The notes below the pieces were generated by a model. That model was not told the origin of the DNA. It did not search any database and saw nothing but the letters and a program-made list of their open reading frames with translations. Positions 1 through 63,258 of a stretch of DNA of 64,000 bases are shown piece by piece; within the stretch, counting starts at the first letter, position 1; every line of letters begins with the position of its first letter. A program made the translations under genes and the position numbers. This DNA comes from an uncultured Pseudomonadota bacterium (GTDB lineage: Bacteria; UBA10199; JADFYH01), in NCBI GenBank assembly GCA_964595045.1, contig CAZQOW010000001.1, positions 9,183 to 73,182 on the forward strand. Reading direction: 5' to 3'.

Positions 1-472
1 TCCGATCGAGAGTAAAAAAACAACCGGTTACATTTTCTAAAATTCCTCTGACTTTTATTTGCGAATGATGTAACTCTTCTTCAATAAATCTCTCGCTAAT
101 TAAAGTTCTATGAAATTTTTCACTTAATAAAACAAGAATTGAACTGATAAAGCAAAATAGCAAAGTATAAAATAGATCAATTCCTGTCGTAGAAAAATTG
201 AGATAATATTTTGGCTCAATGAATAGAAAATTCGCTGCAAAAGCACTCAATAAAATTGAGAGTACTCCAGGAAAAAAACCTGCATACCAAGCTGTGACAA
301 AAATTACCGGATAAAAAAATGAAAATGGAGCATAAACTTTTTGAAAAAAAAGATCGAAAATCAAGTGAGAAAGAACTCCCAACCCAACCATCATGATCGA
401 AAAGCTAAAACGCCAAAAATAACTTTTATGACGTAAAAACTTCTCTGTTTGTAAGAATTTAAAATGAGTCAT
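1..472 (-). CDS. Sensor histidine kinase, N-terminal fragment (DUF4118-like membrane domain then start of a PAS domain). The 3' part lies beyond the window start.
   Basis: Manual reverse-complement translation from the ATG at 470-472 gives MTHFKFLQTEKFLRHKSYFWRFSFSIMMVGLG...FVTAWYAGFFPGVLSILLSAFAANFLFIEP...ILENVTGCFFTLDR. The hydrophobic KdpD/DUF4118-like segment is followed by a PAS-like start. It is not in the ORF track, possibly because it runs off the window edge. Confidence 0.45.
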   Translation of the reverse strand, partial: MTHFKFLQTEKFLRHKSYFWRFSFSIMMVGLGVLSHLIFDLFFQKVYAPFSFFYPVIFVTAWYAGFFPGVLSILLSAFAANFLFIEPKYYLNFSTTGIDLFYTLLFCFISSILVLLSEKFHRTLISERFIEEELHHSQIKVRGILENVTGCFFTLDR

Positions 473-1064
473 TTTATCCTTTTTTAAAAATTCCCCTTAA
501 ACCTTTTCTCTACTTGAGTAGTATCTAAATGGCAACATACCTACTTTACCTTGTTGATTTTATAAAAGGATATATAAGCTGTTAAAATTACTAGTGATTT
601 AAATAATATTAAAGAAACAGTACAAAAACTTTCATCAACAAAAATGATATTTTTCAAATGATCTGTCGCTTCAAAGTTCTATCCATAGATTTCCAACACT
701 AGCCCTATTCCTATCCCTAAAAACATCAGAATCAGGTGAAGCTTTTTTTCTATAAATTTAAAAAAAAATTGATTTCTCGTTTTCATAAATTCGTTTATTT
801 AGAATGAAATCTAAGTTTTATTTTTTACTATGATTCTATCGTACATCTAAATGAATCTTTATCTTTCTAACAATGGGGGATAATACGGTTTAAAAATAGG
901 GGAATACCGGGGAAAAGAATCTTAAAAAAAGAGAAATTTTTATTAATTTTACTTCATATAAATACAGATAAAGAATTTTATTCCTAATTTTAAAATCTTT
1001 AATTTCACTTAAGCTAAAAACTAATCTTAATTAAAATTTAATATTTTTAGAAACTAAGAAGTTT

Positions 1065-1096
1065 CCCTACTTGCAAATAAGAGCTCCCCTGATAGT
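1065..1096 (+). promoter_or_regulatory. Bipartite C-rich motif CCCTACTT-N10-GCTCCCCTGATAGT about 70 nt upstream of the 1165 gene. Second copy at 1697-1728, related copy at 62540-62566.
   Basis: Direct comparison: cCCTACTTgcaaataagaGCTCCCCTGATAGTttt versus cCCTACTTaaaaatcatttGCTCCCTGATAGTaat. Both sit in AT-rich intergenic DNA at similar distances from a start codon. Confidence 0.45.
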
Positions 1097-1164
1097 TTTT
1101 TTTGAACTGCTCTAATATAGTTTTTTATATTTATAAAAAACTTAAATTAATGAGGGAGAAAAAA

Positions 1165-1557
1165 ATGAAAATTTTTAAATTTTATTTTCAAATAAAACTA
1201 TTTTTTTTGAGCATTTTTATTTTTATAATTTTATTAATTTCTCAAATTTCTCAAAGTCTTGCTCGAACAAGTCATTTTAAAAAAATATTAATAAATCGAT
1301 CACATTTTACAGCAAATGAAATTCCATCGAACACTACTACTAATCCTCCAGGAACTATTCATACTAGCCCGAATCCGCCCCCTCCAAAGATTACGCCGAC
1401 TACGCCTCAGCCATCCGATTCATCTATAGAAGGAGCAATTAAAGATGATCCCTCGTCGTTAAAAAACAACAACCCTCCTGCCACAAAAAGTAAGAAGGTT
1501 GGAACTCCTTCAACAATTCGAACTTGGCCACCCCATAATAATAGTTATCAAAACTAA
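1165..1557 (+). CDS. Secreted Pro/Thr-rich low-complexity protein
   Basis: Preferred start is the internal ATG at 1165, behind GAGGGAG at 1153-1159. N-terminal signal-like stretch MKIFKFYFQIKLFFLSIFIFIILLISQISQSLA, then P/T/S/N-rich sequence (NPPGTIHTSPNPPPPKITPTTPQP). No recognisable enzymatic motif. Confidence 0.4.
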   Translation: MKIFKFYFQIKLFFLSIFIFIILLISQISQSLARTSHFKKILINRSHFTANEIPSNTTTNPPGTIHTSPNPPPPKITPTTPQPSDSSIEGAIKDDPSSLKNNNPPATKSKKVGTPSTIRTWPPHNNSYQN

Positions 1558-1795
1558 ACTTCACTTTGTACAATAGTTCATTAAAAAAATAATAATTAGT
1601 ATTGCTGAACATTGTGAAGAATTTAAAAAATTAATTAATTTCGTTCATTTTATTTTTAGATTTTTTAATCTTTTCTTATCTATTTTTAGGGCCTCCCCCT
1701 ACTTAAAAATCATTTGCTCCCTGATAGTAATTAAAATCTATCTCATTTTAATATTACCAAATCAAAATCATTAACCATTTATTAAGGAGATAGTC

Positions 1796-2104
1796 ATGAA
1801 CAACCAATCAGACAATCAAAAGAACAAAAGCGAAGGAAATAAAAATTTATCTGAGAAAGATAAAAATCAGAATCTTAACCAAGATTCAGATACTCAAATG
1901 AATGAAGAAAATCAGGATCGAAGACAAGAGAGAGATCAGGATTCAGGTACTCAAAAAGATGAAAGATCTGGAGAAGAAATAAAACGAAGAACTTCAACTG
2001 AACTTGAAGAAGAAGATGAAAATGATCCGTCAGTAAAAGAGAAAGTTGAATACAAAGATCCAATCAAACCCCAAACAGAAGCTGAACGTTTCGCAAAAAA
2101 ATAA
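1796..2104 (+). CDS. Small highly charged protein (D/E/K/Q/N-rich), predicted disordered. Stress-protein-like.
   Basis: Strong Shine-Dalgarno (TAAGGAGATAGTC) before ATG. 102 aa with no hydrophobic segment. Composition resembles hydrophilin/LEA-like stress proteins. Confidence 0.4.
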   Translation: MNNQSDNQKNKSEGNKNLSEKDKNQNLNQDSDTQMNEENQDRRQERDQDSGTQKDERSGEEIKRRTSTELEEEDENDPSVKEKVEYKDPIKPQTEAERFAKK

Positions 2105-2141
2105 TTATTTAATCAATTTAAAATTTATAAAGGAGACTAAT

Positions 2142-2408
2142 ATGGAAAACGTAAAATCATTCGGAAAAGAAATTAAAACCGATGCAGAAAATCTCACTAC
2201 GATCGTTCAAAATGCAGTGAGAGATTCTGTCCAGAGTATTAAAGAGAATTTTTCAGAATATTATGAAAAAGGAATCGAAGGGGCAAAAGAATGGGAAAAA
2301 AAAGCAGAAGGAAAAATTAAAGATTATCCTTTGCAATCTCTTTTAATTGCCGCCGGGGTCGGTTTAGTTTTCGGACTATTATGTCACAAAAAGCAAGCAT
2401 GCAATTAA
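2142..2408 (+). CDS. DUF883/ElaB/YqjD-family membrane-anchored stress protein
   Basis: Internal start with AAAGGAGACTAAT Shine-Dalgarno. About 88 aa. Hydrophilic helical N-terminus then a C-terminal anchor YPLQSLLIAAGVGLVFGLL, the typical ElaB/YqjD architecture. Confidence 0.55.
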   Translation: MENVKSFGKEIKTDAENLTTIVQNAVRDSVQSIKENFSEYYEKGIEGAKEWEKKAEGKIKDYPLQSLLIAAGVGLVFGLLCHKKQACN

Positions 2409-2419
2409 AAGGAGGCTTT

Positions 2420-2878
2420 ATGGATGCAATACAATTATTAAAAGAAGATCATGAAAAAGTAAAAAAGCTATTTAAAGAATATGAATCCTTAGGAGAAAAG
2501 GCTCTTTCTAAAAAAAAAGATATCGCTGATAAAATTTTGATGGAACTGGAAATTCATGCTGAAATTGAAGAACAAATTTTTTATCCGCGAGTCAAAGAGG
2601 CAACGGAAGATGAAGACATTAAAAAATTAATCTATGAGTCTTTTGAAGAACACAAAATTGTAAAAACACTTGTTGCCGAATTAAAAGAGTCAGAAGAAAT
2701 CGATGAAGTTTTCGAAGCTAAGATGAAAGTTTTACGAGAAAGTGTTGAGCACCATATTAAAGAAGAGCAAACAGAACTTTTCCCAGGAGCTAAAAAAGCA
2801 ATGAAGGAAGAGTTGAAAGAGTTAGGAAATGAAATGCAAGCACAAAAAGAGGTTTTGAAGGAGGAAAAAGCAGCTTAG
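2420..2878 (+). CDS. Hemerythrin-like (HHE cation-binding) domain protein
   Basis: Start preferred at ATG 2420 behind AAAAGGAGG. Contains LLKEDHEKVKKLFKEY, EIHAEIEEQIFYP and ESVEHHIKEEQTELFP, the H/E-rich motifs typical of hemerythrin-like domains. Confidence 0.55.
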   Translation: MDAIQLLKEDHEKVKKLFKEYESLGEKALSKKKDIADKILMELEIHAEIEEQIFYPRVKEATEDEDIKKLIYESFEEHKIVKTLVAELKESEEIDEVFEAKMKVLRESVEHHIKEEQTELFPGAKKAMKEELKELGNEMQAQKEVLKEEKAA

Positions 2879-2910
2879 TTAACAATAACAATAATTCTAT
2901 AGGAGGTTTT

Positions 2911-3126
2911 ATGTCAAAAAAAGCATCTGAACATCATAATAAAGCTTCTGAGCATTATGATAATGCTTCCAAACATCATAAAGAAGCGGCAAAGCATTAT
3001 GATGCTGGTAACCATGAAAAAGCAGCACATCATGCTCATACTGCACATGGCCATAGCCAGACTGGCAAAAGTCATGCAAACGAAGCTTCGAAGTCTCACA
3101 CAGAAGAACATGGAAGTAAAAAGTAA
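2911..3126 (+). CDS. Histidine-rich repeat protein (ASEHH / AAKHY / AAHHAH repeats). Possible metal-binding stress protein.
   Basis: Behind ATAGGAGGTTTT Shine-Dalgarno. 71 aa, about 25% His in degenerate heptad-like repeats. Followed by a stem-loop terminator. Confidence 0.45.
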   Translation: MSKKASEHHNKASEHYDNASKHHKEAAKHYDAGNHEKAAHHAHTAHGHSQTGKSHANEASKSHTEEHGSKK

Positions 3127-3138
3127 ATCTACTTTATA

Positions 3139-3173
3139 CCCTTTCTATCTTTAAAGGTAGAAAGGGTTTTTTT
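3139..3173 (+). terminator. Rho-independent terminator after the His-rich gene
   Basis: CCCTTTCTA (3139-3147) and TAGAAAGGG (3158-3166) form a perfect 9-bp stem with a 10-nt loop, followed by T7. Confidence 0.55.
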
Positions 3174-3449
3174 ATGTCCTTCACACTCTCACATCTTTCT
3201 TTTTCAGAATTTTTAGGACTGATCCTGACAATTTTCGGAACGCTCTGTTGGGGAATTTGTTTTTATTGGATGAAGCGAATCTCTGATCGACAAGACAAAG
3301 TAATGAATGAGCTTCAAACTCAAGGAAAGCGAATTGAAAAATTATCAAAAGCTGAGCACGATTTAATTAAAGAAGTGCATCCACAAGTTGGGGAAATCAA
3401 AGAGAGCATTGAAGCTGTCGTAAAAATCATAGATGTGAATAATATTTAA
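3174..3449 (+). CDS. Small membrane protein (one or two TM segments plus a charged C-terminal helix)
   Basis: ORF starts immediately after the terminator T-run. N-terminal hydrophobic segment FLGLILTIFGTLCWGICFYW. No recognised family. Confidence 0.3.
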   Translation: MSFTLSHLSFSEFLGLILTIFGTLCWGICFYWMKRISDRQDKVMNELQTQGKRIEKLSKAEHDLIKEVHPQVGEIKESIEAVVKIIDVNNI

Positions 3450-3464
3450 TTAAAAGGAGAAAAT

Positions 3465-3611
3465 ATGCTGCGTACAATTTTAATTGTTCTACTCGTTCTT
3501 ATGCTCGTTGGAATGTTACCGATATGGCCTTACAGTGCCCATTTTGGATATTATCCGAGTGGAGCTGCTGGATTAGTACTCATCGGATTGATTATTCTTG
3601 CTTTGAGATGA
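3465..3611 (+). CDS. DUF3309-like small membrane protein, 48 aa. Below the ORF-track size cutoff.
   Basis: AAAAGGAGAAAAT Shine-Dalgarno then ATG. Manual translation MLRTILIVLLVLMLVGMLPIWPYSAHFGYYPSGAAGLVLIGLIILALR. The PxWPYS...GYYPSG pattern is typical of DUF3309. Confidence 0.5.
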   Translation: MLRTILIVLLVLMLVGMLPIWPYSAHFGYYPSGAAGLVLIGLIILALR

Positions 3612-9708: not shown

Positions 9709-10956
9709 TTATTTCAACGTTTTCAATGGTAACTTTTTATTTTCACTTAATTTTCGAAAATGTTCGATTGAAAACGTTAAAAAAATGCTAAAAAATAATC
9801 CGCCTATAAAAGCAATAAGTGTATTTTGTCGCACTTTTGGGAAAGAGGGCCCCCTAGGAACTAGGGCTTTATCAATTACTTGAAAAGCTAGATCTTCTTT
9901 TGATTCTTCTATTTTTGCTAACTCATATTGCTGCATAAGAAGAGCATTTGTATTTGTAAGTAATTCTCTTTGAAGAGTTACATACTGTAAGTAAACTTGA
10001 GCCGGAACATTTTCGACAACTCCTTTTTGATTCAATCTCAATAAATGTGCGTCAGATCTTTCTTTTTGTTGCTCCAAGATGCTAAGGTGCTGGCGGAATT
10101 CTTCAAAAGTTTTAGGAAGGATTTCTGATTTCCCGACATCAACATTTATAGTAGACTGTACGCTTGAGATTCTATTATTAGTATAAAACTCACTTAATTT
10201 TTTACTAAACTCTAAGAAGTCTACTTTATTCTTCTGTAACTGAATCTCTATAAACTGACGGTTCCTTTTAGCTGTGGTCAAATTATTCGTAGTAATATAA
10301 TCTTGTAGTCGAACAACAAAATGATTCGCTATGCTCGCAGTTAATTGTGGATCTTTGAAAGTAACTACGATTTTAAGTAGTCCTGTTTTTTTATCTTCAG
10401 CTACTTTTAAAACTTTTGATTGAATAACGCCTACTCCATCTTCGATGCGTGGGATTTGCTCTGCGTTATTATACTTCCAATTATTTTTTGAAACATCCCA
10501 TTGATTCTCAAAAAGAACCGGCATTAAATGTAGATCTTCTATAACCCCCTCAATAAGGGTACGACTGTTTAAAATATTTTTAAATTGCTGAGTTTGTTGA
10601 TCATTTCCCCCAAGTCCTGCCAATTGACTTCCTATAACTGGAATAGAATTAGCTTGAGTTAGTAATGCAGAAAGTCCTCCTCTCCCTGATGAAATTGGAG
10701 TTAAGGCAACCTCTGCCTGGTATAGCTTGGGTGATTTTGAACTAATCCAAAAAGTTATCAGTGTTAATAACAAGGTAAAACAGGCAATTTTCAGTTTATG
10801 GTTATAAAGCATTCTCCCATAATCTAGGAGATTTATTTCATCATCTTCCGCTTTTTTTTGCCAATCATAATAGAAAGATGGAATTGGGAATGGTGGACTA
10901 GAAAAACCTGAATCATCTCCAGGTATGGTTTTGGAATGTTCAGAATCAATTTGCAT
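9709..10956 (-). CDS. Wzz-like polysaccharide co-polymerase (PCP) without a C-terminal BY-kinase domain
   Basis: Wzz-type N-terminus (EINLLDYGRMLYNHKLKIACFTLLLTLITFWIS, TM1), long coiled-coil periplasmic region, C-terminal TM2 (LIAFIGGLFFSIFLTF). Only 415 aa and no Walker motifs. Confidence 0.65.
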   Translation of the reverse strand: MQIDSEHSKTIPGDDSGFSSPPFPIPSFYYDWQKKAEDDEINLLDYGRMLYNHKLKIACFTLLLTLITFWISSKSPKLYQAEVALTPISSGRGGLSALLTQANSIPVIGSQLAGLGGNDQQTQQFKNILNSRTLIEGVIEDLHLMPVLFENQWDVSKNNWKYNNAEQIPRIEDGVGVIQSKVLKVAEDKKTGLLKIVVTFKDPQLTASIANHFVVRLQDYITTNNLTTAKRNRQFIEIQLQKNKVDFLEFSKKLSEFYTNNRISSVQSTINVDVGKSEILPKTFEEFRQHLSILEQQKERSDAHLLRLNQKGVVENVPAQVYLQYVTLQRELLTNTNALLMQQYELAKIEESKEDLAFQVIDKALVPRGPSFPKVRQNTLIAFIGGLFFSIFLTFSIEHFRKLSENKKLPLKTLK

Positions 10957-11104
10957 TTTTCACCTTGAACTCTGAATACTGAACCTTCTGGATACTGTCA
11001 ACCAGCGATTTCTTATTAACTCGCAGTTGAAATATTGACATTCAAATCGATTCTGATATGGGTAACTTCCCTTAAGGATTGAATAGATTCAGTAAAATTT
11101 TCAT

Positions 11105-16754: not shown

Positions 16755-17065
16755 TAACTTCTAAATATTTTGACTATTATTTCATTTTTTAAAATTCAAA
16801 ATACCAACTATCCTATACTTTTTATCGATATAATCTCTCCAGATCTTTTTCCCTTAAACCTACGAAAATCAACCGATAGCTCATATTTTTTTAGTTGATA
16901 AAATTTTCTTTAGCGAATACAGCAAACAGCTAAGAAATATATCTGTTTGCCTAATTTTTATTCGTGGAACTGTTTAAAGAATTGTTCAAAAACCCTTTTT
17001 GCGCCTACAAGGGTGATTTTGAATATAACTTATTGGAATTACACAAGAATCTCATTTGATTCAAT

Positions 17066-17077
17066 GGCGGTAGCCTG
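17066..17077 (+). promoter_or_regulatory. ops-like element GGCGGTAGCCTG (11/12 match to the E. coli RfaH recruitment site GGCGGTAGCGTG), 40 nt upstream of the NusG-paralog start codon
   Basis: Direct reading of 17061-17080 (tcaatGGCGGTAGCCTGctt). Candidate -35/-10 (TTGCGC ... TATAAC) about 45-65 nt further upstream would place the element in the 5' UTR. Confidence 0.5.
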
Positions 17078-17117
17078 CTTAAAGTATCACTTTTCATGCT
17101 GAGGAAATAATAACAAA

Positions 17118-17597
17118 ATGAATGCTTGGTACGTCATTCGAACGAAACTAAAAAAAGAAAAAGAAGTTATAAACCAGCTCAACAGAGCTCATTATGAACT
17201 CTTCTTTCCCCAAATGAATGCAGTTCCATCTCCTAAACCTCTTTTTCCTTGCTATCTCTTCATCCGAACAGATTTTACCGATCCAAATCATCACCGAATG
17301 GTCCGATACACTCGCGGAGTAAACAGAATTTTGGGAACTGGAACAGATCCTGCCCCTGTTTCGGATATCGTCATTGAAACTTTAAAAATGAAAACGGAAA
17401 ACGGTTTACTGCGGGAACAAGAACTTCTTTTTAAAGAAGGGGACGAGGTAAAGGTGAAAAAGGGAATCTTAAAAGATCTGCAGGGAATGATAGAAAAAAA
17501 TCTTCCGGCTGCAGGTCGGGTAAAAGTATTGTTTAAATGGTTGAACGTAAATATGCGAGCAACCTTGAAATACACTGATTTAGAAAGACATGGTTAA
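17118..17597 (+). CDS. NusG/RfaH-family specialised transcription antiterminator (NGN + KOW domains)
   Basis: NGN start WYVIRTKLKKEKEVINQL, KOW-like FKEGDEVKVKKGILKDLQGMIEK, 159 aa. First gene of a co-directional gene run of about 42 kb, preceded by a 360-nt leader. Confidence 0.7.
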   Translation: MNAWYVIRTKLKKEKEVINQLNRAHYELFFPQMNAVPSPKPLFPCYLFIRTDFTDPNHHRMVRYTRGVNRILGTGTDPAPVSDIVIETLKMKTENGLLREQELLFKEGDEVKVKKGILKDLQGMIEKNLPAAGRVKVLFKWLNVNMRATLKYTDLERHG

Positions 17598-62276: not shown

Positions 62277-62865
62277 AACACCCTCCTTATAGGAATAACT
62301 TTCATTAAAAATTCCCTCTCAAAAAACCCCGTTATAGTCGTCCTCGAAATCTATTAGAGATAGTTGCTAATTTTTTTAATTTTTATTTAAATATTAATAA
62401 TTGATTAGAAGATTTTTCATTTCTAAAAAAAATTAATGAGGATTATCAGCTTCTTAATTCCTTTTCATGATTTTCGATTATCAAATCGTCTCAAACTGTT
62501 TTTAGGCTCCCCCTGGTGGCTCAGATCATTAACTATATTGCAAAACTCTCCCCCCTCCTGTGATAGAAAATAAAACCTTTAGAAAGCAATTGAAGCACCC
62601 AATTATTCGAACACGAATGGCTCTACCGAGTTGGAAAAAAACAGCCTTCTTGTACCTTGAAACCGACACTCTAAGAAATGGTACACGAGGTGAAACGGGT
62701 TGAACTAAACATTGGACTTCATGACATTTTCATCAGCCCGGAAAATTAGTAACGGAATCGATCCAAGAGGCGAGGGATCTGCCTTGGGAGACTGATGAAA
62801 AAATATTTTTTTTAGAACTATTTCTGGAAAACCGCGTTGGTTCTCCAAATAAAGGAGAATTATTC

Positions 62866-63258
62866 ATGCAAAGAACAATCATTTTTTCTACACTTATCGG
62901 ATTAGGGCTTATCTTTCTCACCTCTTGCGGGGGAGCACTCAACGCGCCAGCCCCTGATATTACCGGTATTTACACTCTAACTACCACCCAATGTGCCGGA
63001 TCCCTTTCCAATCAAATCAAAATTGAGCAAGATGGGTACAATTTTTCTGCGACTTCTACCCCCATAAATTCCATGAAACCTTGGAGTGGAACCGTAGGAT
63101 CCAGCGGTGCGCTTTTTATTTCAATTCCTACGACCGGAAGCAATCGAATCGTCTGCGATGGCACTCATCATGACAATTTGATTGATTTAGATTGTGATCT
63201 CAATGGAGGAAACGCTCCTGAGATTCCCTGTAAAGTTCAATACCAGAAGAATAATTAA
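62866..63258 (+). CDS. Small lipoprotein
   Basis: AGGAGAATTATTC Shine-Dalgarno. Lipobox LIFLTSC. 130 aa. Terminator downstream. Confidence 0.45.
   Translation: MQRTIIFSTLIGLGLIFLTSCGGALNAPAPDITGIYTLTTTQCAGSLSNQIKIEQDGYNFSATSTPINSMKPWSGTVGSSGALFISIPTTGSNRIVCDGTHHDNLIDLDCDLNGGNAPEIPCKVQYQKNN

Follow-up and report, generated by a model that had tools for sequence, protein, structure and literature searches.

Genes and elements of the window

The window—the whole 64,000-nucleotide stretch under analysis, which is part of a 90,344-bp contig of an uncultured bacterium—carries three copies of a conserved element close to its left edge (Table 1). Elements 1 and 2 precede, by 68 and 67 nt as counted from their ends, the genes that start at 1165 and 1796. 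The first of these genes encodes a secreted protein for which neither Pfam nor NCBIfam gave a match; the second heads a string of genes for small proteins. Element 3 points the other way, toward a membrane-peptide ORF and the N-terminal part of a sensor kinase. On the contig, this kinase is followed by a NarL-type regulator (P0127), which is 97% identical to the regulator of the related locus L002 (L numbers denote loci fetched in the searches described below).

Table 1. Coordinates of the elements and neighboring genes in the window
Feature	Coordinates	Strand	Remarks
Sensor kinase, N-terminus	1..473	-	DUF4118/PAS/GAF/HisKA_3; continues beyond window edge
35-aa membrane peptide ORF	679..786	-	Start 83 nt past element 3; L002 orthologue MKMINQHFFKFVEKKLHLILMFIGIGIGLMLEIYG
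Element 3, weak -10-like hexamer TTAGAT	845..850	-	Predicted from family position 59-64
Element 3	870..911	-	ccCGGTATTCCCCTATTTTTAAACCGTATTATCCCCCATTGT; kept in L002 8419-8381 and L003 150-112
Element 3, site 2	890-872	-	-35-like TTGTTA 873-868
Element 3, site 1	911-897	-	CCCGG-TATTC-CCCTA
Element 1, upstream regulator-binding region (predicted)	1055..1096	+	Matrix score; conservation in L002 8591-8629 (orthologous locus)
Element 1, site 1	1055-1069	+	TAAGA-AGTTT-CCCTA, left half weak; then A-rich linker
Element 1, site 2	1076-1094	+	AATAAGAGCTCCCCTGATA
Element 1, predicted core promoter	1093..1121	+	From family consensus; -35-like TAGTTT 1093-1098, 17-bp spacer, -10-like TATAGT 1116-1121; predicted start ~1128
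Element 1 gene	1165..1557	+	130-aa secreted proline-rich protein, signal peptide; orthologue in L002
Element 2	1687..1728	+	Kept as block in L002, L003, L005; flanks diverged
Element 2, site 1	1687-1701	+	TAGGG-CCTCC-CCCTA, both half-sites perfect
Element 2, site 2	1708-1726	+	AATCATTTGCTCCCTGATA
Element 2, predicted core promoter	1725..1754	+	From family consensus and sequence; -35-like TAGTAA 1725-1730, 18-bp spacer, -10-like TAATAT 1749-1754; predicted start ~1761
Element 2 gene string	1796..3611	+	Gene order identical in L002, L003, L005, L006
Acidic 102-aa protein	1796-2104	+	First gene after element 2
DUF883-like	2142-2408	+	
Hemerythrin	2420-2878	+	
His-rich 71-aa protein	2911-3126	+	
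Terminator-like hairpin	3138-3167		Inside gene string after element 2
91-aa membrane protein	3174-3449	+	
DUF3309	3465-3611	+	

The sequences CCCTACTTGCAAATAAGAGCTCCCCTGATAGT at 1065-1096 and CCCTACTTAAAAATCATTTGCTCCCTGATAGT at 1697-1728 align without gaps as CCCTACTT-N14-CCCTGATAGT. The pattern CCCTACTT-N8-14-GCTCCC occurs twice in the window and in none of 100 dinucleotide shuffles. A weight matrix of distant relatives, built from 54 sites with the window sequence and its close relatives left out, assigns 27.5, 25.5, and 24.4 bits to the three window sites (27.5 to element 1 and 25.5 to element 3), and -7.2 bits to the next-best position on both strands of the 64 kb. With the full matrix, the maximum in 100 Markov-1 random windows is 9.6 bits. 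The two near-identical elements at 1065-1096 and 1697-1728 that the original prediction had singled out are, hence, real and far beyond chance as judged by shuffles and matrix scores. The three relatives it had listed in addition (62540-62566, 493-518, and 16851-16880) reach -22, -38, and -27 bits with the family matrix and are not members: two of its five sites are genuine, three are unrelated, and the minus-strand copy at 911-870 was overlooked. Short C-rich look-alikes carry no weight because CCCTACTT with one mismatch is found 32 times compared with 34 expected.

Architecture of the motif family

Strict-pattern scans of genome and metagenome collections were used to fetch loci, and the weight matrix was then run over these loci. 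The motif occurs in fixed register in approximately 70 further copies from related metagenomic and MAG contigs with a GC content of 0.27 to 0.63. The matrix found many extra copies that were not forced by the strict pattern, such as nine in 13.7 kb of L072 and six in 13.4 kb of L002. In the genome_contigs collection, the pattern scan returned 58 matches—about chance level—of which only L009, L014, L035, L021, L052, and perhaps L019 are true; most matches were rejected as single chance matches or as conserved coding sequence in Flavobacteriia and Anaerolineae.

The gapless alignment of 68-74 distinct copies yields the consensus TAGGGaAATcCCCyA-gTyaaAAAtC-ctgtctcCCCTGATtGT, followed by tc, a CT-rich spacer of 17 nt, and TAnnnT. 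The first part, site 1, is over 74 copies the palindrome T A G G G a A A T c C C C y A; within the window, its left half is weak in elements 1 (TAAGA) and 3 (CCCGG). The AAA at positions 18-20 of the motif is invariant. Site 2 lies 23 bp downstream of site 1 and shares the skeleton T....G.....CCC.A.T; its left half is complete in just one subclass, which features AATC...GATT with GGG/CCC, for example, AATCGGGACTTCCCCGATT in L081. The two C-rich boxes noticed at the outset are the right halves of these two palindromic sites 23 bp apart.

Predicted core promoter and downstream genes

Site 2 abuts TTGTtc (36-41), and TAnnnT begins exactly 17 bp after this hexamer, 20 nt downstream of GATTGT. In the family alignment, TAnnnT stands at position 59 in 37 of 68 copies and at any other position in at most four; T59 is kept in 64/68 copies and A60 in 56/68. 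From this hexamer, we infer the -10 and with it the transcription start, and all positions relative to the start rest on this predicted -10, whose last position is T in only 40 of 68 copies—low for a canonical -10.

The genes downstream of the copies encode CsbD, DUF883, DUF1328, Dps/ferritin, SOD, BON proteins, lipoproteins, and the kinase and regulator described below; chaperone and protease genes were not found among them. This content is shared with the regulons of RpoS, SigB, and EcfG, which comprise CsbD/YjbJ, DUF883 (ElaB/YqjD-like), DUF1328/YtjA, Dps-like ferritin, SOD, and BON-domain proteins—in Salmonella, yjbJ and ytjA are under tight sigma-S control (PMC5437024). It speaks for a dedicated alternative sigma factor (ECF-type, sigma-32-like, or another of group 3/4) that would use the element as its promoter, with a -35 within the 39-mer and a -10 in GATTGT or in the downstream TA. 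The CC(T/C)GATTGT block, which is kept more strongly than an ordinary -35, points the same way and could be read by such a dedicated sigma or by a second protein. However, in the RpoS, SigB, and EcfG systems, a bipartite -35/-10 is read by a dedicated sigma factor, whereas here the conserved block precedes a core promoter of ordinary appearance, and the regulator linked to it belongs to the two-component response regulators. Wherever a -35 is placed, conservation continues for another 35-40 nt upstream of it and bears dyad symmetry. In addition, GATTGT as -10 accounts neither for the invariant T59 A60 nor for the 17-bp geometry. The earlier parsing of TTGCAA, C-rich spacer, and GATAGT as -35 and -10 of an alternative sigma is not supported: the conserved TAnnnT is found 20 nt past GATTGT and 17 bp after its TTG.

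Readings as sigma-28, sigma-32, sigma-54, SigB-type, and ECF promoters were each rejected by register and spacing. The sigma-32 consensus is CTTGAA-N13-14-CCCCATnT, and CCCCCATTGT of element 3 resembles its -10, with a cTTnAAA-like box upstream. This likeness is superficial: the distance to the box is 11-12 nt instead of 13-14, the family consensus is CCCTGATTGT, conservation extends far upstream, and the downstream genes lack the chaperones and proteases. The AAC/CGT signature of ECF promoters is absent from the consensus, with G58 in only 26/68 copies, and GG-N10-GC of sigma-54 (TGGCAC-N5-TTGC, -24/-12) is absent from the elements on both strands and from the consensus. The 334 kb of motif-bearing loci hold no alternative sigma gene; their one sigma gene is RpoD-like and has no motif in front. 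The ECF gene in L105 (2572-3111), a locus fetched by the regulator, lies 7 kb away from the motif and has no copy in its vicinity. The proposed search for a cognate ECF sigma, thus, turned up none in the 334 kb; a NarL-type regulator gene recurs beside the motif instead. Between the promoter class and the shared regulator operator that had been offered side by side, the operator fits best and the ECF-type promoter is unsupported. A dedicated alternative sigma factor is, overall, unlikely.

A linked NarL/FixJ-type regulator

The NarL/FixJ-type regulator, present in nine locus groups, is the sole transcription factor family among the recurrent families of the motif loci and is paired with a GAF/PAS HisKA_3 sensor kinase. 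Orthologues with bit scores of ~300 are encoded in L002 and in five loci for whose retrieval only the motif was used (L085, L075/86, L089, L099, and L009). In the opposite direction, all five independent loci fetched by the regulator (L101, L102/103, L104, L105/106, and L107/109; GC 0.42-0.63) have a motif copy within ~200 bp of the regulator or kinase operon. The motif is located immediately upstream of regulator or kinase genes in L089, L085, L014, L099, and L101 and, via element 3, in the window and L002. The key positions of the recognition helix VSxKTxESHYAxIKxKL do not vary among orthologues whose overall identity is only ~60%, matching the conserved DNA motif. An invariant D67 (L002 numbering) may be the receiver aspartate. 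In a divergent subgroup of the regulator with an HYAKIK helix, the motif at the respective loci is essentially unchanged, and the linkage held. By NCBIfam and PDB searches, the regulator is a generic member of the NarL/FixJ family without an equivalog: the NarL model reaches 137 bits where its cut-off is 250, and the PDB match to DevR (E 1e-25) is weaker than those to VraR or NarL.

This linkage, including the upstream copies, is equally expected if the regulator is a mere regulon member, and its sequence cannot reveal its binding specificity. Both points suit an operator of another transcription factor—activator or repressor—with the NarL-type regulator and its kinase as passengers of the regulon. 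We give this reading a low probability: the motif loci show no second recurrent transcription factor family, and the DNA-reading helix and the motif are invariant over one and the same range of genomes. Tandem GGG/CCC palindromes with the proximal one placed over the -35 are a documented NarL-family pattern (PMC3177182). The predicted site positions, -66 and -43, together with a weak -35 fit activation better than repression.

Position and boundaries of the copies

Every copy is oriented toward its downstream gene, at a motif-to-start-codon distance of 35-323 nt with a median of 78, and the start codons feature strong Shine-Dalgarno sequences. Among the reliable cases, most lie no closer than 54 nt, which agrees with a transcription start ~32 nt past the motif. 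Only 5/69 copies fall inside mechanical ORFs of at least 120 aa, although such ORFs make up 78% of the loci. Conservation ends at -3 upstream and approximately +64 downstream, with unique flanks and no terminal inverted repeats. That stress genes are preceded by a common regulatory element, intergenic and of fixed orientation, is borne out by position and orientation across the copies, and two of the findings that were to speak against it—a similar frequency in coding regions and membership in a MITE or dispersed repeat—were not observed.

These boundaries, the constant orientation, and the 64 of 69 copies outside long ORFs make a dispersed MITE- or REP-like repeat highly improbable despite many copies per locus and near full-length conservation over ~40 nt, and the same holds for a structured RNA leader, for which a subclass able to form an AATCGGG...CCCGATT hairpin would speak: the element is upstream of the predicted -10, an Rfam search with it gave no family at E<=1, and covariation is unconvincing (columns 23/33: A-T 18, C-T 28, C-C 11, G-C 7, and G-T 7). 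The related AATCAGG...CCTGATT hairpin was rejected because of low mutual information and the lack of a compensatory pattern.

Proposed activation at tandem sites

On the basis of sequence, we lean toward reading the three window elements as promoters that serve one conserved stress and envelope regulon and depend on the NarL/FixJ-family regulator, which would activate them at tandem sites. In this model, the 15-bp palindrome TAGGG-N5-CCCTA of site 1 would be centered ~66 bp upstream of the predicted start and be joined by an A-rich linker to site 2, a degenerate (AA)T[C/A]GGG-N5-CCC[T/G]A(TT) that usually retains only the right half TCCCCTGA and would be centered near -43. Site 2 would overlap a weak -35—TTGTtc in the family and TAGTxx in the window—followed by a CT-rich spacer of 17-18 bp and a presumed sigma-70-type -10 (TAnnnT). 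The protein most likely to bind is this conserved response regulator, whose gene lies beside the promoters, together with its GAF/PAS HisKA_3 kinase. Phosphorylated dimers on both tandem sites would recruit RNA polymerase with an ordinary sigma factor and so turn on the small stress proteins, the envelope proteins, and the regulator's own operon, with positive autoregulation via element 3. The center-to-center spacing of 23 bp, as opposed to the 21 bp of DevR boxes, counts against this model, as do the weak left halves of site 1 in two window copies, the low share of T at the last -10 position, the strong conservation of CC(T/C)GATTGT, and the invariant AAA at positions 18-20, which plays no part in it.

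More tentatively, this uncultured lineage ("Deltaproteobacteria bacterium" MAGs at NCBI, GC ~0.3 to 0.63) may run its general stress and envelope response under one NarL-type two-component regulator through a near-invariant cassette of ~65 bp in place of an RpoS-, SigB-, or EcfG-type sigma, and the window would then carry three of these promoters including the autoregulatory one.

Comparison with known systems

Half-sites of NarL are heptamers of the sequence TACYYMT in a 7-2-7 arrangement, and BvgA recognizes TTTCCTA repeats. The operators described here are attributed to a regulator of the same family and likewise consist of short C/G-rich half-sites (CCCCT core) arranged as inverted repeats. 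However, the half-sites are oriented the other way round from the NarL 7-2-7 (AGGG...CCCT compared with CCCT...AGGG), and spacing and flanks differ.

In DevR/DosR promoters of the dormancy regulon of Mycobacterium tuberculosis, between two and four palindromic boxes with GGGACT half-sites stand in tandem, such as those at -42.5 and -63.5; DosR binds cooperatively to a degenerate neighboring box and contacts sigma region 4 and the alpha-CTD (PMC3177182; PMC13486717). Both systems combine a NarL-family regulator with a GAF-containing HisKA_3 kinase and palindromic boxes with GGGA... half-sites. At least two boxes stand in tandem, the proximal one at about -42/-43 over the -35 and the next approximately two helical turns upstream—positions that are predicted in the present case—and one box is well conserved with a degenerate neighbor. 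The regulon comprises stress and dormancy proteins, and the regulator operon is autoregulated, here by prediction. In contrast to DevR, of which the present regulator is not an orthologue, the half-sites are closer (GGG-N5-CCC in 15 bp compared with a Dev box of 18-20 bp), the boxes are 23 instead of 21 bp apart, and the better-conserved palindrome is the distal one. Binding is predicted here, and the host belongs to an uncultured "Deltaproteobacteria bacterium" lineage and not to the Actinobacteria. Literature searches with the motif strings returned only unrelated eukaryotic NF-kB-type and primer matches, and no paper connecting CsbD, DUF883, and NarL was found.

If the model of regulator-dependent activation holds, a second, phylogenetically unrelated case of a DevR-style tandem-box stress regulon would be at hand that is built on a response regulator and not on a sigma factor. 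A short DNA signature would then predict the stress-induced genes of a lineage widespread in groundwater, sediment, and sludge metagenomes and point to its master regulator and sensor kinase, so that regulator, operator, and much of the regulon could be named for uncultured organisms. The compact and strongly conserved cassette makes the model directly testable in a heterologous host supplied with the regulator and kinase genes. Uncharacterized small proteins—the acidic 102-aa family, the His-rich 71-aa protein, and the 35-aa peptide—would gain a function by association. The acidic 102-aa family also features a C-terminal EY(K/R)DP motif.

Copies of the motif in the window

The window carries three copies of the motif, elements 1, 2, and 3. 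CCCTACTTGCAAATAAGAGCTCCCCTGATAGT in element 1 and CCCTACTTAAAAATCATTTGCTCCCTGATAGT in element 2 are both found in the sequence and align gap-free as CCCTACTT-N14-CCCTGATAGT, a gapped pattern with 2 matches in the window versus 0 in 100 shuffles. Element 3 (ccCGGTATTCCCCTATTTTTAAACCGTATTATCCCCCATTGT) was found by a regular expression and then by a weight matrix, and has the same 31-nt register as the other two. With a matrix made from 54 distant copies only, the three elements score 24–27.5 bits and the next best window position −7. Short look-alikes are at chance level: the window has 32 one-mismatch matches to CCCTACTT, where 34 would be expected. The original prediction listed five C-rich bipartite sites: two are real (elements 1 and 2), the other three are unrelated to the motif (−22 to −38 bits with the family matrix), and the genuine site of element 3 was overlooked. 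The window contains no tRNA and gives no Rfam match.

Motif copies, neighboring genes, and further features in the window and in related loci (L numbers)
Feature	Position	Strand	Description
Element 1	1065–1096	+	motif position 1 at 1058; ends 68 nt before the gene at 1165–1557
Spacer of element 1	1097–1115		motif positions 40–58
Gene behind element 1	1165–1557		130-aa secreted proline-rich protein
Element 2	1697–1728	+	motif position 1 at 1690; ends 67 nt before a string of small genes
Spacer of element 2	1729–1747		motif positions 40–58
First gene of string	1796–2104		acidic low-complexity protein, 102 aa
Relatives of 102-aa protein	L035 392–676; 3998–4291		distant MAG
Hairpin	3138–3167		terminator-like, 13 pairs and T-run
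Element 3	911–870	−	motif position 1 at 908; opposite direction, toward peptide ORF
Peptide ORF	786–679	−	35-aa membrane peptide, MKTRNQFFFKFIEKKLHLILMFLGIGIGLVLEIYG
Peptide ORF in L002	8181–8282		conserved
Sensor kinase	473–1	−	runs off the window
NusG paralogue	16755–17597		region of the 360-nt leader and the 159-aa protein (NusG and KOW)
Polysaccharide-type gene string	17118–59304	+	~42 kb, headed by the NusG paralogue
Non-coding region	62277–62865		590 nt
C-rich tract	62507–62521		GGCTCCCCCTGGTGG
C-rich tract	62547–62567		CTCTCCCCCCTCCTGTGATAG
Lipoprotein gene	62866–63258		downstream of the non-coding region
Alpha/beta-hydrolase genes	L101 10680–11618; L089 10800–11813; L072 around 10200–11100		BD-FAE/COesterase type

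Copies in relatives

Relatives were found by homology search with the window hemerythrin protein, the close ones being 79–93% identical. In three of them (L002, L003, and L005), all three elements are kept as conserved blocks in diverged intergenic DNA. L002 (13.4 kb) features six copies, three extra ones lying ahead of other small stress genes, and these six paralogous copies align in a single ungapped 39-nt register. Scanning one genome per species with a strict pattern gave 58 matches, which is about chance level; six, from four MAGs named 'Deltaproteobacteria bacterium' or 'Pseudomonadota bacterium', are seemingly genuine, and in their loci the matrix finds additional copies not forced by the search pattern. 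A further scan of this kind, on metagenome contigs, yielded 36 loci, ~25 of them genuine, with nine copies in L072, five in L089, and four to five in L094/L095. In total, 68–74 distinct copies occur in DNA with a GC content of 0.27 to 0.58—up to 0.63 with the loci fetched via the regulator described below. A Flavobacteriia group and a group from Anaerolineae, Acidobacteria, and other phyla were left out (L020, L025, L043, L044, L058; L015, L018, L031, L034, L048, L050, L055); their 39-mers are near-identical within each group and appear to be conserved, most likely coding, sequence fitting the search pattern by chance.

Architecture of the motif

Positions are counted from the G (position 1) that lies seven bases ahead of the CCC of the original prediction. 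The consensus reads T(−2) A G, G G a A A T c C C C y A (1–12), g T y a a A A A t C (13–22), and c t g t c t c C C C T G A T t G T (23–39), followed by t c, a CT-rich, G-poor stretch, T59 (64/68), A60 (56/68), n n n, and t64 (40/68). Of 68 copies, 37 have TAnnnT beginning at position 59; no other offset has more than four. This −10-like hexamer lies exactly 17 bp past TTGTtc (36–41); the strongly conserved GATTGT therefore holds a −35-like TTG, and the remaining 39-mer lies upstream of the core promoter. The predicted start, taken as 7 nt past the −10, is position 71. On the coding strand of relatives, the spacer has many pyrimidines and few Gs; in the AT-rich window, it is T/A-rich.

Site 1 (positions −2 to 12) is a 15-bp palindrome, TAGGG-N5-CCCTA, centered at about −66 relative to the predicted start. 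Site 2 (19–37) is a dyad, AATC..G-N5-CC.GATT, centered at about −43. Site 2 repeats the whole palindrome in a subclass (T-C-G-G-G-A-C-T-T-C-C-C-C-G-A in L081 versus T-A-G-G-G-A-A-A-T-C-C-C-C-T-A for site 1); in most copies, including those of the window, it is reduced to the right half, TCCCCTGA. The two boxes of the original prediction are thus the right halves of both sites. Column pairs across copies show no convincing compensatory covariation, which argues against a folded nucleic acid and for a DNA element bound by a protein.

Position and target genes

Only 5 of 69 copies fall inside a mechanical ORF of at least 120 aa, though such ORFs make up 78% of the loci. For 64 copies, the same-strand downstream gene starts 35–323 nt past position 39 (median 78), mostly with a strong Shine-Dalgarno sequence; the pile-up of gene starts at 54–71 nt fits a transcription start ~32 nt past the motif. 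By locus groups, the targets include CsbD (7), DUF883 (8), DUF1328 (4), and Dps/ferritin-like proteins (5), besides a BON, SOD, OmpA, and ferritin operon, outer-membrane barrels, many Ig-like-domain lipoproteins, and response-regulator and kinase genes. Since the CsbD-like YjbJ and the DUF1328 protein YtjA of Salmonella are small proteins under tight sigma-S control (PMC5437024), this gene set resembles a general stress regulon.

The string behind element 2 encodes, in order, the acidic 102-aa protein, a DUF883-like protein, hemerythrin, a His-rich 71-aa protein, a 91-aa membrane protein, and DUF3309. The strong hairpin lies between the His-rich and the 91-aa protein genes, so the last two genes may depend on read-through or on expression of their own. 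Neither Pfam nor NCBIfam gives a match for the 102-aa protein. With its relatives, which lie behind the same promoter motif, it shares MNxQxD at the N-terminus and EY(K/R)DP at the C-terminus, and it looks like an uncharacterised stress-protein family.

Candidate factor reading the motif

A recurrent NarL/FixJ-type response regulator (227 aa in L002, Response_reg and GerE) adjoins a DUF4118/PAS/GAF/HisKA_3 kinase. Orthologues (bit scores ~300) occur in five loci retrieved solely through the motif, plus L002. Given a single-copy gene and a genome of at least 2.7 Mb, that amount of DNA would be expected to hold an estimated ~0.05 occurrences. The regulator is 60–70% identical across many uncultured MAGs, with a DNA-reading helix invariant at key positions. 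Conversely, five independent loci were fetched via the regulator (L101 from the 2.75-Mb genome CP064976.1, L102/103, L104, L105/106, and L107/109; GC 0.42–0.63), and in all five a motif copy lies no more than ~200 bp from the regulator or the operon of its kinase, ahead of the kinase/regulator operon in some and beginning 8–60 nt past the regulator stop codon in others. The motif lies immediately ahead of regulator or kinase genes in L089, L085, L014, L099, and L101, and element 3 precedes the peptide–kinase–regulator string in the window and L002. Such a gene order is what a positively autoregulated two-component system with neighboring targets would show. The kinase may have a small membrane partner in the hydrophobic peptide encoded between element 3 and the kinase gene.

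These observations favor, as the somewhat likelier reading, an operator plus weak promoter cassette for the conserved NarL-type regulator, with start, binding, and activation all predicted. That the operator belongs to another factor is improbable: among the families that recur in the motif loci, that of the regulator is the only one of transcription factors. The original prediction had read the sites as an alternative-sigma promoter or a shared operator. Shared control of stress genes holds; the sigma promoter is just as improbable as another factor's operator, since no sigma reading fits register and spacing, be it sigma-32, sigma-28, sigma-54, SigB-type, or ECF. A search of 334 kb of motif-bearing loci with E. 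coli RpoE and RpoH queries (approximate sequences) found a single sigma-70-family gene, long and RpoD-like, without the motif ahead.

Comparison with known systems

The regulator has a generic NarL/FixJ family match only and no NCBIfam equivalog up to the cut-off; its nearest solved structures are VraR, NarL, and DevR. The predicted cassette most resembles DevR/DosR promoters, which feature tandem palindromic boxes with GGGACT half-sites, e.g., at −42.5 and −63.5, a conserved box that nucleates cooperative binding to a degenerate neighbor in a helical phasing-dependent manner, and DosR dimer contacts with sigma region 4 and alpha-CTD (PMC3177182; PMC13486717). In contrast, the palindrome here is more compact (GGG-N5-CCC), the spacing is 23 bp, the distal box is the better one, the host lineage is unrelated, and the regulator is not a DevR orthologue. 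The mechanism class is an established one. Apparently undescribed are the regulator, the motif, and the regulon: the searchable literature gives no match for the motif strings or the combination of family names.

Further features

The 590-nt region upstream of the lipoprotein gene does not belong to the motif family (−22 bits), and no Rfam family matches it at E ≤ 1. CCCTTAAACC at 16851, near the NusG paralogue, was listed in the original prediction and is likewise unrelated. In six locus groups, an alpha/beta-hydrolase gene adjoins the response-regulator gene or lies behind a motif copy.
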